From a virus (lineage: Duplodnaviria; Heunggongvirae; Uroviricota; Caudoviricetes): 16,004 nucleotides of DNA. The DNA is taken from IMG/VR virus record IMGVR_UViG_2579778633_000006. One strand, written 5' to 3'. The notes beneath the pieces were generated by a model, which was given only the letters and a program-made list of their open reading frames with translations, did not search any database and had not been told where the DNA came from. Positions 1,079 through 15,628 of the stretch are shown piece by piece (position 1 is the stretch's first letter; every line of letters starts with the position of its first letter). A program made the translations under genes and the position numbers.

Positions 1079-1348
1079 TTAGTTATATTTTTTTTCCGTT
1101 CTGACTTTTTCCCACTCAGCTCGCCCTTCTTCCCGTCTTTTGTCAATATATTCCGCAAGATCCTGAATGTTGATGCAGCGTTTTGCTTTTTGTGATGTAC
1201 CGATGCGATATGTAGGTACAGGCAACTTACAAGCGTTTGCTTTTGCTTCTGCTGTGGCTGGACTCATACCAAAGTATTTTTGACTAACTGCTGAGAGTTC
1301 AATGTTTGGGGTATTGAATTCAGCCATCAGTAAAAACAAGGTATTCAT
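1079..1348 (-). CDS. PrtN-family (pyocin activator-like) small DNA-binding protein
   Basis: 89-aa ORF; N-terminus MNTLFLLMAEF and central LPVPTYRIG...SQKAKRCINIQDLAEYID resemble PrtN-family proteins as I recall them. GGAGA RBS about 8 nt upstream of ATG (minus strand). Confidence 0.5.
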   Translation of the reverse strand: MNTLFLLMAEFNTPNIELSAVSQKYFGMSPATAEAKANACKLPVPTYRIGTSQKAKRCINIQDLAEYIDKRREEGRAEWEKVRTEKKYN

Positions 1349-7710: not shown

Positions 7711-8141
7711 TCATGAGTCTTTTGAATGAAGTTCAGAAATACATTGAAGCCCATCCGGGGTGTACTTCCGGAGACATTGCGGATGCTTTTGCAGGTTACT
7801 CACGGCAGCGCGTTCTGCAGTCAGCAAGCAAGTTACGTCAGAGTGGTCGTGTGGCTCACCGTTGTGAAGGGGATACACGCAGACATTTCCCGCGCCTGAC
7901 TGAGAGAGCGCAGGAGGCGGAACCGCAACCAGTTCGTGAAACCAGACCTGTGCGCAATTTCTATGTCGGCACTAACGATCCCCGGGTGATTTTGTGCCTG
8001 ACCCGCCAGGCGGAAGAACTGGAGTCGAGGGGCTTATACCGTCGTGCTGCAACGGTGTGGATGGCGGCATTCCGTGAAAGCCACTCCCAGCCAGAGCGAA
8101 ACAATTTTCTTGCGCGTCGTGAAGGCCGCAAAAACGTCTGA
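7707..8141 (+). CDS. PerC-family-like transcriptional regulator (C-terminal GLYRRAATVW motif), N-terminal winged-helix-like extension
   Basis: 144-aa ORF with ATGA overlap to upstream gene; C-terminal LESRGLYRRAATVWMAAF resembles the LE..GLWRRAA.RW signature I recall for PerC/Pch proteins. Confidence 0.45.
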   Translation: MIMSLLNEVQKYIEAHPGCTSGDIADAFAGYSRQRVLQSASKLRQSGRVAHRCEGDTRRHFPRLTERAQEAEPQPVRETRPVRNFYVGTNDPRVILCLTRQAEELESRGLYRRAATVWMAAFRESHSQPERNNFLARREGRKNV

Positions 8142-10536
8142 GACGAATGCGGATAACAGCGCACAGGCGGCAGCGGCCTCACAAACTGCATCGGCAAACT
8201 CCGCGACAGCAGCCAAAAAATCAGAAACCAACGCGAAAAATAGCGAGGCAGCAGCAAAGAGCAGCGAAACTAATGCTAAATCCAGTGAAACAAACGCGGC
8301 GAAATCTGCAGCGGACGCACTTAATTATCGCAACCAGGCACAATCCGTTGTTGGTAACAATATTGGTCTTGGTGAAGTTGCTATGACCTGCACTGATATC
8401 TCTGTTGAGCCATCAGGTTATATTGGATTTATCAGGATTTACATCTCAGCGAAAGGTTATCCATCAGTAGCGTCTAGTGCCGGGGATAATCTTATTTCTG
8501 GTTATATAGTTAGATCAGAAGTGTCAACAAAAAGATATTCCGGTCTATTTGTTGGTTCAGATACAAAATCATTGTATTCGTACATTTACAGCCAAAGTTC
8601 TGGCCCGCAATGGATACGTCATACCCGCAGAGATGAATTAAGCCGCTTTGGTCAAAATGAATCAACAACTCGTATGTATGGTCCAACTGGTGATCGTTTC
8701 TTTGAAATCCATACTAACGGGAGTTGGGGGGTTTATGATTCTTCTTCTGGACAATGGTCTCCGTTAGGTTTAGCCCAGGGTGGTACTGGTGGAAGAACTA
8801 TCGAGCAAGCACGTGCGAACTTGCGGGTAATGTATGAGCAAAAAGCTGGCCTTGCTAATACTGACCTAAACACCCTTACCGGTGAATATTCTGGTTTCTA
8901 TCAACAACCAACGAGCGCTTACGCAACAGAAGAATTAAATTACCCAATCGGTCTGGCGGGCGCTTTAATAGTGCTCCAAACGAGAGCCAACACTGCTTCT
9001 TCCTGCGTTCAGGTGTACCACCCTTATAATAATCCGGGAATTACTTATAGACGAATATATGAAGGAGGTAGCGGTACCTGGTCTGAATGGAAGAGAGATG
9101 TATCAACAGAAAGGGTTGAAGAGGGAAAAGAAACAACTTACGTATATTCTACGTATTCTTCAGGCGCACCACGCTTACAGGTTTCCAAATCTGGTTTGTG
9201 GGGTTGTCATAATGGCACTGGCTGGTTGCCATTAGCTGTTGGGCAAGGAGGTACAGGTGCGACAACAGTAGAAGATGCGCGAAACAACTTAAGTCTTGGC
9301 GAAAGTAGCGCAGTTAAATTTAAAAACCTTACTTTAACCGAAGCGCTCGACACGACATTAGGACTGCTTACAAAAACAGGACGAGACTGGAACGCTCAGC
9401 ATACTGATAACGTCGACAAATTTAGACCAATTGCAGGCAGTACAAACGGCCCGGCAGGCTCTATGGTTCTTGGCGGCATTCATGTTCAATTTAGTAAAAA
9501 TTATGCTGTGCAGTTCGGAGGCCGCAATTCCGGTTTTTGGGGAAGAACAATTGAAAATGGAACGACGCAGGAATGGAAGAAATTACTAACAGTAGACGAT
9601 CTCAATTCATCTACCGCTCTTGCTGTCAGGTCATTAACCACATCTAACCCGATAAAATCTGGCGGAGGGCGGATTGATGTCCTTGGAAGCACGTCAGACT
9701 ATAGCAAAATGGATTGCTTTGTACGTGGGTTTGATAGCACCGGTAATTCTCTCGCGTGGGCGTTGGGTTCATCAGTCGGCGTAAGTAAGATGCTGTCGCT
9801 AAAAAATTTCTTTAGCGGAGCTGAGATACTGCTAAATGGTAATGACGGCGCGGTTCAACTCAAAACAGGTGCTGTTAACGGTGCTAAAGCGCAGGCGCTC
9901 ACTATCAACAAGGATGAGGTTAACTCAACTGTTGATTTAACTCTTACAAAACAAACAGGGACTGGCAATCGTTTTGTTTTACAGAACTTAGGTAATACAG
10001 AACTACCATTTGCTGTCAAGGTGTGGGGTTCAGGTGATCGACAAAACGTTTTTGAGGTTGGAACGTCTGCCGCGTATCTGTTTTATGCTCAAAAAACATC
10101 GTCAGGTCAGCTGTTTGATGTAAACGGTGCTATTAACTGTACAACACTGAATCAGTTATCAGACCGCGAGCTGAAAGACAATATTCAGATTATCAGTGAC
10201 GCAACCGAAGCTATCCGTAAAATGAACGGGTACACCTACACACTTAAGGAAAACGGACTGCCTTACGCTGGTGTTATTGCACAGGAAGCAATGGAGGCAA
10301 TACCGGAAGCGGTAGGCTCATTCACTCATTACGGTAAAGAGTTGCAGGGACCAACGGTTGACGGCAATGAATTACGTGAAGAAACACGTTATCTGAATGT
10401 TGACTACGCCGCCGTGACGGGCTTACTTGTTCAGGTCGCCCGTGAAACAGATGATCGCGTTACCGCGCTGGAAGAAGAAAACGCAGAATTAAAACAAAGA
10501 TTATCTGCAATTGAGGCGGCGCTTGCCTCTAAATAA
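8125..10536 (+). pseudogene. Tail-fibre gene remnant, 5'-truncated (no start codon in the homologous region), with intact C-terminal intramolecular-chaperone-like domain
   Basis: KTSETNA/KSSETNA repeats as in lambda Stf-type fibres; two GQGGTGA-T-E-AR-NL tail-fibre repeats; C-terminal SDRELKDNI...NGYTY...AELKQRL resembles the autocleaving chaperone domain of fibres/tailspikes. Fibre homology begins in the +1 frame inside the last codons of the PerC-like gene; the only in-frame start upstream is a GTG at 8044 translating unrelated sequence. Confidence 0.6.
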
Positions 10537-10973: not shown

Positions 10974-12350
10974 CTATGATATTCCTGAAATATCCTCTTC
11001 AAGCTCTTTTACTGATTTCGCAATTTTAAATTTAAACTTCCTCTCTATTTCACTATTGCTAAGTTTTTTTTCCTTCTCTTTACCTATCCACATAGAAACA
11101 AGTTCTCGTTTCTGAGATATATGTAGATTGTCAAAGTTAGGTATGTATTTAAAAGTCTCCGCTCTACCTCTGCGGAGTTCATAGAAAGTTTTAATCAAAG
11201 ATTTTGGTTTTATTTCTGATGAAAGGCCGAATCGGCGGATAAGATTATTGATAGTATGATTAACAGAGCGAAGTTGAGCTGTTGAGGTTATTTGTGAGAA
11301 GTACGATACCCATCCCAATCGTTTACCTTCAAACACACATCCCGTAATTCTGAGATTTAGTTTCCACTGACAATATGCAACAGCTCGTTCTTTATCACGC
11401 TTACTTTTAGCTTGTAGTAGAGCGTGCCTATATGCAGTAAAAATTTTTGCTAAGGATGACTCAAATCTAAGAATGCTCTCATGTTTTATCAATAATTCTC
11501 GATTTTCTATGTGGTATCCCAAAAAGTTAAAACTTTCATCCAAACTGCCTACTTTGGATTTTGAGTTCTCTTCATTTAATGGATGTGGGTTTAAATTTAA
11601 TGATTGAAGCTTATCAATGATATGAGAAGCTATTTTTGTTGCTTGATATTTTGGTGTTAAAATAAGAATGTCATCAACGTATCGCATGTACCATATGTCA
11701 TGCATTTTATTGATTTCATCATCGAAATTAGATAGTGATATTTCAGCTAAAATGTTTGATATCGCTAATCCCTGAGGTACTCCTCTGGTATTATTAGGGA
11801 TACCTTTGCTTCCTGTGGTTCCACTTACAGTAGGCACGATTAATGATGATGTTATTAACTGTCTAATTTCTTTTTTTCTAATTTTATTTTTTATTGCATT
11901 AATTATCAATTTATGTTCAATTGAAGGATAGAAACTTTTAAGATCTATTTTTGCATATTCAGCATATAGACTGTTGTTTAATGCTTCTTTCAATGAGTCA
12001 ATTACTGTATGTGGTAGTTTTAATCTGGACTTAGGATATATTTCCGTAAGGCATTCACAGAGAGCTCTAAGAGTAATTCTGTCCCTAGCAGTTGGTATGG
12101 AAATCTGTCTGGGTGTAGAGTTAGCGCCTTTAGATATTAATTTTTCTTTATATGCTGTAAATTTGTAATTGCCAGAATTAACCTTTTCAAAAATGAAAGT
12201 GATCTCATTTTTTATTGTCAAATCAAGTTTTGATGGGCGAATCCGATCTATGCCAATCGCTCCTGATTCTTTGATTTTTTCAGAGTATACTTTTAGAAGA
12301 TTTTTTTTCGAGAATGACTTTTTAAAAATTCTGCTTGCAGTCATAGTCAA
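10974..12350 (-). CDS. Reverse transcriptase (bacterial defence-type RT; retron-like vs UG/Abi-like unresolved), 458 aa with C-terminal extension
   Basis: RT motifs in order: GIDRIRP; RQISIPTARDRITLRAL; IDLKSFYPSIEH; GVPQGLAISNILAEI; YMRYVDDILIL (YxDD catalytic box); FNFLGYHI. AT-rich gene; start overlaps upstream TM-protein gene by ~29 nt. Confidence 0.85.
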   Translation of the reverse strand: MTMTASRIFKKSFSKKNLLKVYSEKIKESGAIGIDRIRPSKLDLTIKNEITFIFEKVNSGNYKFTAYKEKLISKGANSTPRQISIPTARDRITLRALCECLTEIYPKSRLKLPHTVIDSLKEALNNSLYAEYAKIDLKSFYPSIEHKLIINAIKNKIRKKEIRQLITSSLIVPTVSGTTGSKGIPNNTRGVPQGLAISNILAEISLSNFDDEINKMHDIWYMRYVDDILILTPKYQATKIASHIIDKLQSLNLNPHPLNEENSKSKVGSLDESFNFLGYHIENRELLIKHESILRFESSLAKIFTAYRHALLQAKSKRDKERAVAYCQWKLNLRITGCVFEGKRLGWVSYFSQITSTAQLRSVNHTINNLIRRFGLSSEIKPKSLIKTFYELRRGRAETFKYIPNFDNLHISQKRELVSMWIGKEKEKKLSNSEIERKFKFKIAKSVKELEEDISGIS

Positions 12351-12873
12351 TCCAAAGATATATTAATGGGAGTATATAAAGTGCGGCAGTAATAAATATT
12401 CGAAGTAATATCCATAAAATAACAATTATTTTTTCTTTTTGTGTGGGGATCCTCGTCTTAAGTCCAACTTGAGTTACCCTTGAAATTTTATCATCTATGT
12501 CACGGTGATTCTCAACCTCATTGAGCAAATTAAAATATTTTTCTTTCTGTTCAAGAGATAACTGTTGACTGGTGGTAATGTCAAAATAGAGTCGCTGTAG
12601 TGCAATATAATTCCTTCTCATGGCTATTGCTCGACCACGAAAATCTAGGTTAGATACGATCAGAGAAATACCCAGTAGAGCCACTGAAAGTATCGCCGCA
12701 ACGACATCTGTATTATCTCCTAGAACCTTTGGAAATCGCAACGTTACAATTGAAAGTACCGCACTCAATATAGCATACCAAACGAGGATAAATTGAGAGT
12801 GTTTTTCAAGCCATTCTAGTCGATGGTGCGCTTGGATACGTGCTTTATATGTAAACCAAATATTGTCATGCAT
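12322..12873 (-). CDS. Multi-TM small protein, SLATT-like (putative membrane effector of the RT system)
   Basis: 183-aa ORF; AGGA RBS 5-8 nt upstream of ATG 12871-12873; hydrophobic helices FILVWYAILSAVLSIVTL, VVAAILSVALLGISLIVS and C-terminal IIVILWILLRIFITAALYILPLIYLW separated by a charged helical region; 3' end overlaps RT start. Confidence 0.6.
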   Translation of the reverse strand: MHDNIWFTYKARIQAHHRLEWLEKHSQFILVWYAILSAVLSIVTLRFPKVLGDNTDVVAAILSVALLGISLIVSNLDFRGRAIAMRRNYIALQRLYFDITTSQQLSLEQKEKYFNLLNEVENHRDIDDKISRVTQVGLKTRIPTQKEKIIVILWILLRIFITAALYILPLIYLWIDYDCKQNF

Positions 12874-13404: not shown

Positions 13405-14502
13405 TCAAGAGGTCTTATTTCTGCTCCTTTGGAGTTCTTCAAAACGATTATGTAAAGATTTCGGATACAGTTCGGTATATACCTGCCATAGCACGTTTAA
13501 TGAACGATGCCCTGTAACCTGAGCGACTTCCTCAATACTAAAACCAGCCTCAAATAAGCGACTTGCCCCTTCTCTACGCAAATCATGGTATCTCAGATCT
13601 TTAATACCTAATTTGCTTCTTACCCTCTGAAATCCTGCGGTAACAGAAGTGCTGTTATATGGAAAAATGAATTCTGATTTTTTGGGTTGTCGCTGGACGA
13701 TATCCCAGGCTTCCCCAAGCAAGGCAACTTTCATATGGTTGCCTTCCTTTTTACGTGGATCTTTCCTGTCTCTTACTAGTATAGATTTTTGTTCCTGGTC
13801 GAGATCTTCCCATCGTAACCGGCATACTTCTCCGATTCGCATACAGGACCACACAGAAAATTTGAGGATATCAACGAACGGAATTTTTGAGCATTTATGA
13901 GTAGATCGTTGTTGAAGGCCTTCAATGAGCATGTTCAGTTCATCAGATGCTGGTCTACGATTACGACGGTTTGATTTACCAATCAAACCGAGTTTAAGTA
14001 GATATGGACGAGCGCTTTTCGCCGGGTTTGATGTGTAATTGATTCCGTATACAGGTTTTGCCGCATCCAGAACACTGCCAAGATAACTAACATCGTGGCT
14101 GACTGTTGCTGGGCCTGCACCAGCGTTGTTTCTTAGCCTGCAATGTTCAATTACGTCATTTTCTGTCAGTTCAGATAGTTTGATCGCGGAGATGTCACTA
14201 TCCATAAGCAGTTCCAGCACATATCTTTTAGTACGGCCTGCTTTACCTCCGGCATTTGGGTCATTTAAATATTTGTGTAGTAAGTCACGGACTGTAAGTC
14301 CGTCAACAGCATTTGATGATGGAATGCCATATAGATCTAATTCCATCACTTTCTGTGCGCCCCATGTTTTGGCATGAGCATGTTTAGGGAATGTTTTGCT
14401 TTCCCTGTAAGTGATAACACCTTTTTCTTTGATAATCACATTACAGCGATAGCGTGGTGTGCCATCGGATTTTAGTCGTTTCTCTATGTTATAGTACGCC
14501 AT
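13405..14502 (-). CDS. int: Tyrosine-type site-specific integrase (phage integrase family), adjacent to and divergent from dusA
   Basis: 365-aa ORF; C-terminal catalytic signatures MRIGEVCRLRWEDLD (Arg), YHDLRREGASRL (HxxR), GHRSLNVLWQVYTEL (His/Trp and Tyr). Confidence 0.9.
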   Translation of the reverse strand: MAYYNIEKRLKSDGTPRYRCNVIIKEKGVITYRESKTFPKHAHAKTWGAQKVMELDLYGIPSSNAVDGLTVRDLLHKYLNDPNAGGKAGRTKRYVLELLMDSDISAIKLSELTENDVIEHCRLRNNAGAGPATVSHDVSYLGSVLDAAKPVYGINYTSNPAKSARPYLLKLGLIGKSNRRNRRPASDELNMLIEGLQQRSTHKCSKIPFVDILKFSVWSCMRIGEVCRLRWEDLDQEQKSILVRDRKDPRKKEGNHMKVALLGEAWDIVQRQPKKSEFIFPYNSTSVTAGFQRVRSKLGIKDLRYHDLRREGASRLFEAGFSIEEVAQVTGHRSLNVLWQVYTELYPKSLHNRFEELQRSRNKTS

Positions 14503-14520
14503 TACACGACCTCGTTATTT

Positions 14521-14557
14521 CGGGTTCCCATAAAGCGTGGGAACCTGTGCGGGAACC
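14521..14557. repeat. GGGTTCCC / GGGAACC repeat cluster in the int-dusA intergenic region (candidate recombinase-binding or regulatory sites)
   Basis: GGGTTCCC (14522-14529), GGGAACC (14539-14545) and GGGAACC (14551-14557): one inverted and two direct copies within 36 bp. Confidence 0.35.
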
Positions 14558-14590
14558 TAACGCGAGAAAAATAGCCTGAAATGTTCAAAA

Positions 14591-15628
14591 ATGCACGATA
14601 ATCCTGAAACACAGAAAACTAATCAAACCAGCGTGATGCCTGAAAAAACTGGCGCTTACTGGAGTTCTCGGTTTAGCATTGCTCCTATGCTCGACTGGAC
14701 GGACAGACATTGCCGCTATTTCTTGCGTCTGCTTTCCCGCAATACGTTGCTGTATACCGAAATGGTGACCACAGGGGCGATTATTCACGGTAAAGGTGAT
14801 TACCTGGCGTACAGTGAAGAAGAACATCCGGTAGCGTTGCAACTCGGCGGTAGCGATCCGGCGGCGCTGGCACAGTGTGCGAAGCTGGCAGAAGCGCGTG
14901 GATATGATGAGATCAACCTGAATGTCGGCTGCCCGTCTGACCGGGTGCAGAACGGCATGTTTGGTGCGTGTCTGATGGGTAATGCGCAGCTGGTTGCCGA
15001 CTGCGTGAAAGCGATGCGCGATGTGGTGTCGATTCCAGTGACGGTGAAAACGCGTATTGGCATCGATGACCAGGACAGCTATGAATTTCTCTGCGATTTC
15101 ATCAACACCGTTTCCGGCAAAGGCGAGTGTGAGATGTTTATCATCCACGCACGTAAAGCCTGGCTTTCGGGGTTAAGCCCGAAAGAAAACCGTGAAATCC
15201 CGCCGCTCGATTATCCGCGTGTGTATCAACTGAAGCGTGACTTTCCGCATCTGACAATGTCGATTAACGGTGGTATCAAGTCGCTGGAAGAGGCCAAAGC
15301 ACACCTGCAACATATGGATGGCGTGATGGTCGGGCGCGAGGCGTATCAGAATCCGGGTATTCTGGCGGCGGTAGACCGGGAGATCTTTGGTTCCTCGGAT
15401 ACCGATGCCGATCCAGTGGCGGTAGTGCGCGCCATGTATCCGTACATTGAGCGTGAACTCAGCCAGGGGACGTATCTCGGCCATATTACCCGGCATATGT
15501 TGGGCTTGTTCCAGGGTATTCCTGGCGCGCGGCAGTGGCGGCGTTATTTAAGTGAAAATGCCCATAAAGCGGGTGCAGACATTAATGTGCTGGAACACGC
15601 GCTCAAACTGGTGGCGGATAAGCGTTAA
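14591..15628 (+). CDS. dusA: tRNA-dihydrouridine synthase A
   Basis: 345-aa ORF with conserved Dus-family sequence ([30 protein letters not shown], catalytic Cys region); followed by pspG as in E. coli. The 5' end may be element-derived; true start may lie downstream of 14591. Confidence 0.9.

Follow-up and report, generated by a model that had tools for sequence, protein, structure and literature searches.

The 5' end of Escherichia coli dusA as the attR junction of an mEp460-like prophage with candidate arm-type integrase sites

The window analysed here, 16,004 nucleotides of E. coli DNA recorded as a Caudoviricetes virus (IMGVR_UViG_2579778633_000006), contains towards its right end an integrase gene, int, and the tRNA-dihydrouridine synthase gene dusA, which diverge from a short spacer (Table 1). 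The longest dusA reading frame (14591..15628, plus strand) encodes 345 residues and is followed downstream by pspG. Its start lies 88 bp from that of int (14503..14590), the distance given in the first-pass annotation. The ATG at 14636 is the annotated dusA start in strains of the U13A type and may be the true start, which would widen the untranslated gap to 133 bp.

Table 1 Features of the integrase-dusA junction and of related attachment sites
Feature	Position	Strand	Sequence, evidence or remark
PrtN-family gene, RdfN homologue, near the other end of the element	1079..1348	-	PF11112, E 2.8e-23
int, tyrosine integrase of the dusA-specific (DAI) family, 365 aa	13405..14502	-	PF00589, E 8e-21
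Part of int encoding residues 1-58, the N-terminal domain (candidate arm-binding domain)	14329..14502	-	modelled as three beta-strands and one helix
Extended -10-like element directed towards dusA, candidate element-supplied dusA promoter	14487..14495	+	TGTTATAGT; within int codons 3-6
int-dusA spacer, 88 bp, int-proximal arm of attP	14503..14590	.	one substitution relative to the mEp460/Lys8385Vzw attP
Site 1, inverted GGGAACC copy	14521..14531	-	CGGGTTCCCAT
Site 2, first unit of the direct pair	14537..14547	+	GTGGGAACCTG
Site 3, second unit of the direct pair	14549..14559	+	GCGGGAACCTA; 12 bp from site 2
Block kept across lineages with differing repeat words (for example the GGGGTGCT class)	14568..14581	.	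AAAATAGCCTGAAA; conservation profile
Element-derived replacement dusA 5' end, codons 1-32	14591..14686	+	present in free-phage attP
Common core (crossover segment) of attP, attB, attL and attR, 8 bp	14687..14694	.	ATGCTCGA; from alignments and the end of phage similarity at 14694
Rest of dusA, of host origin (tRNA dihydrouridine 20/20a synthase)	14695..15628	+	PF01207, E 8e-105
Far arm of attP bearing the second site pair			TTTGTGGGAGCCTATTGGGAACCTAT
Repeat motif, Burkholderia phage DC1			TGTACCA
Repeat motif, Ralstonia phage NK-7			GCACACC
Repeat motif, Pseudomonas phage F1Pa			GTAGCAA
Repeat motif, Acinetobacter prophage			GGTGTAAAT

By homology, the integrase is a member of the dusA-specific (DAI) tyrosine integrase family. 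It is 98.1% identical over 365 residues to the integrase of phage mEp460, which Farrugia et al. 2015 (PMC4482086) named among the dusA-associated integrases, and shares 99.5% identity with its counterpart in phage Lys8385Vzw. In the integrase alignment, each of the catalytic residues R222, H306, R309, H332 and Y342 is either invariant or shows at least 90% conservation. The first-pass annotation had assigned the enzyme to a dedicated dusA integrase family and had allowed that it might instead cluster with a family directed at another site; the closely similar integrase of mEp460 is dusA-specific. The marks of the family are a position at the dusA 5' end, replacement of that 5' end, semi-conserved imperfect attL and attR repeats, and frequently a prtN homologue (PMC4482086). 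The repeats are direct, extend over ~21 bp and cover the codons for an APM(L/M)DWTD motif; int is the sole gene common to all dusA islands, and the nearest characterised family by sequence is Rci (PMC4482086). The locus agrees with these islands and prophages in its int divergent from the dusA 5' end, new 5' end, imperfect attL/attR repeats, prtN homologue and RHRH/Y catalytic pattern, and shows no essential difference from them. The PrtN family supplies the directionality factor RdfN, whose function was shown for IMEVchUSA3 and whose gene was reported to be apparently ubiquitous in dusA-specific islands (Durand et al. 2021, PMC8409611).

The attachment core was placed from the attP of free phages, the attB of K-12 and the far junction (attL) observed in NZ_CP101705, a genome that matches the window at 100% identity except for one deletion and whose far junction lies outside the window. 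A four-way alignment showed that the window junction consists of element DNA up to ATGCTCGA and of K-12-type dusA beyond it. The part of the window that begins at the int start and takes in the spacer, a 96-nt dusA-like stretch and ATGCTCGA corresponds to the left half of the contiguous attP of mEp460 (JQ182728) and Lys8385Vzw (MT225100); this half is almost identical to positions 14503-14694. At the far junction, a K-12-type dusA 5' fragment extends up to ATGCTCGA and is followed by the right half of attP, and the free-phage attP aligns as the left half from the window plus this right half from NZ_CP101705. In that genome the end of the element, ~300 bp outside the left edge of the window, is marked by a 105-bp pseudogene annotated as 'tRNA-dihydrouridine synthase, incomplete', with DUF2713 and zur following. 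Counted from the sequences, attR (TTGCTCCTATGCTCGACTGGACGGA) and attL (TTGCACCAATGCTCGATAGGATGTA) share 19 of 25 positions. The attP core sits within the inverted repeat TCCTAT-GCTCG-ATAGGA, which would be the expected shape of core-type sites flanking a 7-bp overlap. No second copy of the core with up to three mismatches was found inside the 16-kb window, in line with the earlier remark that the other junction is absent from it. On the evidence of these alignments, positions 14503-14700 are shown to be the attR of a lambdoid prophage that resembles mEp460, has become defective and was inserted into the 5' end of E. coli dusA by a dusA-specific tyrosine integrase.

Because the two attP halves match both junctions and similarity to the phages stops at 14694, 32 dusA codons come from the element, which agrees with the replacement of the dusA 5' end proposed in the first-pass annotation. 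The phage attP holds a 96-nt imitation of the dusA 5' end immediately to the left of the core, and recombination with the host core fuses this copy in frame to host dusA. DusA remains intact with 10 residues altered among its first 32, the original 5' end is left stranded at the other junction to the left of the window, and excision would need the PrtN-family RdfN homologue (Table 1). Integration at dusA with a replacement 5' end is established biology of a known system, and the junction is a textbook case of a mobile element repairing the gene that it interrupts.

The boundary is equally visible in comparisons with strains that lack the element. Before the core, dusA differs from that of K-12 at 18 of 96 nucleotides and 10 of 32 residues, whereas past the core the differences amount to 10 of 942 nucleotides and no residue; the GC content is 43.8% in codons 1-32 and 54.2% in the rest of the gene. 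The alignment with element-free dusA recommended earlier located the core and revealed a 5' end that is not identical to the native one. The accompanying claim that the first ~30 codons are atypical stands for GC content and for divergence from K-12, but not for the CTC codon (codon 34), which lies in the host-shared core and is not specific to the element.

The native versions of the gene are themselves of two types. K-12 MG1655 carries a DUF2713 pseudogene upstream of a 345-aa dusA, and in strain U13A zur immediately precedes a 331-aa dusA whose start differs. The U13A-type gene also diverges from the window up to the same point, and the window, K-12 and U13A versions converge at ATTGC.CC.ATGCT. 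The two native 5' ends (locus L001 3850-4100 for K-12; locus L002 5801-6010 for U13A) likewise diverge from one another exactly to the att core. The K-12-type 5' end is 84% identical to the phage mimic over 110 bp, and its start sits behind a 1.6-kb DUF2713 segment that U13A lacks; it may descend from an old integration. Searches of the K-12 zur-dusA region with tblastn and blastn revealed no significant integrase remnants, and no displaced U13A-type 5' end was found in K-12.

A megablast search of 5,426 complete E. coli genomes identified 734 (~14%) that carry int adjoining dusA. Most of the remaining genomes match the window only from position 14588 and a minority only from 14678. The far-arm sequence is joined to a U13A-type dusA start in 80 genomes, which shows that both native dusA types serve as targets. 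In one of these, strain 2014C-3338 (locus L092, NZ_CP027452 1617000-1666800), the int, DinI, PrtN and Panacea module flanks a complete ~46-kb stx2a prophage at dusA. Both attL and attR of this strain read ATGCTTGA, with T at core position 6, and because both junctions carry T, the C/T polymorphism at this position in U13A-type hosts, which we tried to use for mapping cleavage, was uninformative. The deposited genome of Lys8385Vzw (locus L005) contains a tandem duplication of the attP core (ATGCTCGAATGCTCGA; alignment columns 207-222), which could be an assembly artefact from joined prophage ends or a real 8-bp crossover duplication.

The spacer contains one inverted and two direct copies of GGGAACC, as first noticed in the initial reading (14523-14529, minus; 14539-14545, plus; 14551-14557, plus). 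These are the only copies in the 16-kb window, all three fall within 35 bp, and the extended site consensus is nTGGGAACCTn. The attP far arm contains a second pair, GTGGGAGCCTA and TTGGGAACCTA, located 50 and 61 bp beyond the core in the same orientation, and the mutual similarity of three E. coli far arms stops directly past these two sites. The attP of the E. coli phages therefore carries three copies in the int-proximal arm and two in the far arm, all unrelated to the core sequence. Any 7-mer is expected about once in 16 kb, and 13 of 200 shuffles gave at least three copies somewhere in the window, which speaks for a chance cluster. When the count was confined to the 88-bp spacer, however, at least three non-overlapping copies of any 7-mer on either strand occurred in only 14 of 20,000 dinucleotide shuffles, and dozens of lineages show this layout with other words in place of GGGAACC. 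Taken together with the far-arm copies, the shuffles and the recurring layout effectively refute a chance origin, to which we assign a negligible probability.

The recurrence was assessed in 62 non-redundant spacers drawn from a panel of 80 loci from different species with integrases 52-99% identical. In 47 of the 62, two identical 7-mers in direct orientation lay 10-13 bp apart and no more than 100 bp from the int start, compared with 1.6 in shuffled sequences and none in a control region. The spacing was 12 bp in 31 loci and 11 bp in 12. An exact inverted copy accompanied the direct pair in 14 of the 47 loci (0.28 expected), nearly always on the int side of the pair and separated from it by a gap of ~8 bp. 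The direct pair is retained in relatives that do not adjoin dusA. The phages DC1, NK-7 and F1Pa and the Acinetobacter prophage, each with a motif of its own (Table 1), all have inverted copies near the int start, and three of the four also possess a direct pair with a 12-bp spacing. Far-arm copies are present in the free phages DC1, NK-7 and F1Pa, which together with the E. coli phages makes four phage lineages. The conserved block AAAATAGCCTGAAA may belong to the int promoter or serve as a site for a host factor.

We regard it as probable that the GGGAACC copies and the far-arm pair are arm-type sites for the N-terminal domain of the integrase. The first-pass annotation had named arm-type sites or int-promoter operators, which is the best-supported reading after the comparative analyses described here. 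The AlphaFold model of Int (mean pLDDT 85) consists of a confident N-domain (residues 2-58), a low-confidence linker, and the core-binding and catalytic domains. Full-length lambda Int (1z1g_A) aligned with Int over 370 columns, and no sequence homology was detectable between the two N-domains. Across 40 loci, the distance between site sequences correlated with that between Int N-domains (Spearman 0.44) and continued to do so when the rest of Int was controlled for (partial 0.43, permutation p<0.0005), although the N-domain codons lie 20-60 bp from the sites and co-inheritance by linkage could inflate the correlation. The corresponding values for the rest of Int were 0.12 and, as a partial correlation, -0.06. 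In the largest motif class (GGGGTGCT, 15 loci), both units are invariant and the bases between and beside them vary, which goes some way towards answering the linkage objection. A host factor was excluded as the binder of the sites because the motif word changes from lineage to lineage. If Int is the binder, the five sites would let a lambda-type heterobivalent integrase bridge the arms and the core within an attP of ~260 bp.

The main rival to arm-type integrase sites is that the phased direct repeats bind the RdfN excisionase or another element-encoded regulator, and set directionality or repress int. Tandem, helically phased repeats on a single attP arm are a common target of directionality factors such as lambda Xis and P2 Cox. 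Apart from Int, no protein other than RdfN is common to dusA-specific elements, and the sites lie where the int promoter must be. However, the site sequence tracks the Int N-terminal domain, and copies on both arms in the same orientation together with an inverted copy form the pattern of integrase arm sites. The direct pair is, moreover, kept in the relatives away from dusA. We therefore consider binding by RdfN or a similar regulator unlikely.

Alternatively, sites 1 and 2 could pair into a hairpin, as RNA or as DNA, within the leader of dusA or int, one conceivable role being to modulate dusA expression, with site 3 being incidental. The plus-strand RNA can indeed form an 11-bp stem (CGGGUUCCCAU/GUGGGAACCUG) with a free energy of -17.7 kcal/mol (z = -2.26). 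In the 99%-identical module of Escherichia sp. MOD1-EC7003 (locus L010), sites 1 and 2 alone carry a compensatory double change, GGTTCCC to GGTCCCC in site 1 and GGGAACC to GGGGACC in site 2, which keeps them complementary. Counted from the int start, these changes fall at positions 24 and 40 of the spacer, with essentially no change in site 3 or in the Int N-domain. The double change could be a templated quasi-palindrome mutation or reflect a hairpin constraint, and the paired change fits such a constraint better than it fits shared recognition by a protein. Nevertheless, the exact inverted copy is limited to 14 of the 47 lineages, and the conserved feature is the direct pair, which is unable to pair with itself. 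A hairpin also leaves the far-arm copies of attP unexplained, the fold of the whole spacer is unremarkable (z = -1.4 and 0.09), and no U-tract follows the stem. This makes a hairpin a very unlikely account of the sites compared with arm-type binding by Int.

An extended -10-like element, TGTTATAGT, is embedded in the first codons of int and directed towards dusA. The pattern TGnTATA[AG]T occurs at this place in 29 of 41 distinct integrase genes of the MA[YH][YF] clade and in none of 34 other integrases. Residue 5 of Int varies (S, N, T, I), yet its codon follows ANx without exception, and AGY encodes the serine in 24 of 24 cases; the free position of this codon is the 'n' of the pattern. Upstream of the native gene, K-12 carries TGGTATAGT and U13A carries TGCTATAGT. 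A consensus promoter and terminator scan of positions 14300-14800 returned no hits and did not flag TGTTATAGT, and no convincing int promoter was found by eye. TGTTATAGT is a candidate for an element-supplied dusA promoter. Measured from the int start codon, the GGGAACC sites are 21-57 bp upstream, and they are downstream of TGTTATAGT; if TGTTATAGT is a promoter, the dusA transcript would contain all three sites among its first 60 nt, close to int on its upstream side. By occupying the sites, the integrase might then also repress int, the element-supplied dusA transcript or both, a suggestion that we make tentatively.

A wider proposal, which we offer as a possibility with the balance somewhat against it, is that dusA-specific integrases are heterobivalent through an unrecognised N-domain that reads lineage-specific sites in phased pairs 11-12 bp apart on both arms. 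In the enterobacterial clade, the same ~100 bp would also accommodate two divergent promoters, and Int occupancy would couple recombination, int autoregulation and dusA expression. The extended -10 of the dusA promoter would then lie within int codons 3-6, and codon 5 would be constrained to ANC at the level of DNA.

The arm-site and embedded-promoter observations are, as predictions from sequence, the sole new elements of this analysis. Neither was found in the literature searched, which held nothing relevant on arm-type sites in dusA integrases or mEp460; the term 'arm-type' does not occur in Farrugia et al. 2015 (PMC4482086), and the study of the Vibrio dusA elements contains no dusA promoter mapping (PMC8409611). 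IMEVchUSA3 and the other Vibrio elements share the dusA target and RdfN of the PrtN family with the locus described here, but are IncC-mobilisable islands with AcaCD-controlled rdfN, whereas the window carries a lambdoid prophage remnant (PMC8409611). The lambda Int/attP system resembles the present one in its three-domain integrase (here from the model) and in repeated non-core sites on both arms that include adjacent direct repeats. Unlike in lambda, the target lies inside a coding region, attP carries a mimic of a gene start, and arm binding is predicted from sequence. ICE SXT, which occupies the 5' end of prfC, differs in integrase family and target and is a conjugative element. For a family known solely from its core site, the comparison contributes a proposed layer of mechanism that is open to experiment, an incremental gain and not a surprise. 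With the rival readings weighed, the explanation as a whole, a prophage attR junction at dusA with the GGGAACC copies as probable arm-type sites, appears to us highly probable.

The modules of mEp460 and Lys8385Vzw have the same arrangement as the window, with DinI adjoining int and a PrtN-family gene across attP. Unlike these phages, the window element is defective, with a 7.4-kb internal deletion and a cargo of a UG17 reverse transcriptase and a SLATT protein. The window is 100% identical to NZ_CP101705 but lacks 7,435 bp at 8121/8122. It is conceivable that the junction is a fossil, the prophage being degraded, the module immobile and the repeats leftovers in this strain, a rival that concerns present activity alone and not the identity of the sequences. 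The loss of these 7,435 bp and the truncated portal, tail, lysis and RusA genes already present in NZ_CP101705 are consistent with such decay. By contrast, int is full length with its catalytic residues intact, the RdfN homologue is intact, attR matches the attP halves of functional phages, and attL is intact in NZ_CP101705. Free phages with a joined attP exist, which indicates that the integration module is functional in relatives. We consider a fossil junction rather unlikely. In other E. coli the same module carries complete Stx2a-converting phages, so that precise knowledge of its att core and arm sites is of use in delimiting such prophages and predicting their mobility.

Several features of the element's content were recorded alongside the junction. 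The segment absent from the window (locus L003 8675-16109) contains methyltransferase, RusA, lysis, terminase and truncated portal genes. Because this segment is absent, a tail-fibre/S74-chaperone gene is extended upstream across the deletion joint into an 830-aa reading frame (8044-10536). Adjoining the left end of the element on the plus strand are a gene for a Panacea-domain (SocA-like antitoxin) protein (1-474) and, following it, one for a 182-aa protein with a hydrophobic C-terminus (497-1045). Neither gave a padloc hit; the two may act together in defence or as toxin and antitoxin. A cargo region on the minus strand (10974-12873), bounded by dinI and the tail-fibre gene, encodes a UG17-group reverse transcriptase (padloc RT_UG17, E 1e-158), whose gene overlaps that of an upstream 183-aa SLATT_5 protein with two transmembrane segments (RT-associated SLATT, E 1.5e-56). 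These two genes are a candidate defence-associated reverse transcriptase system in a phage 'moron' position.
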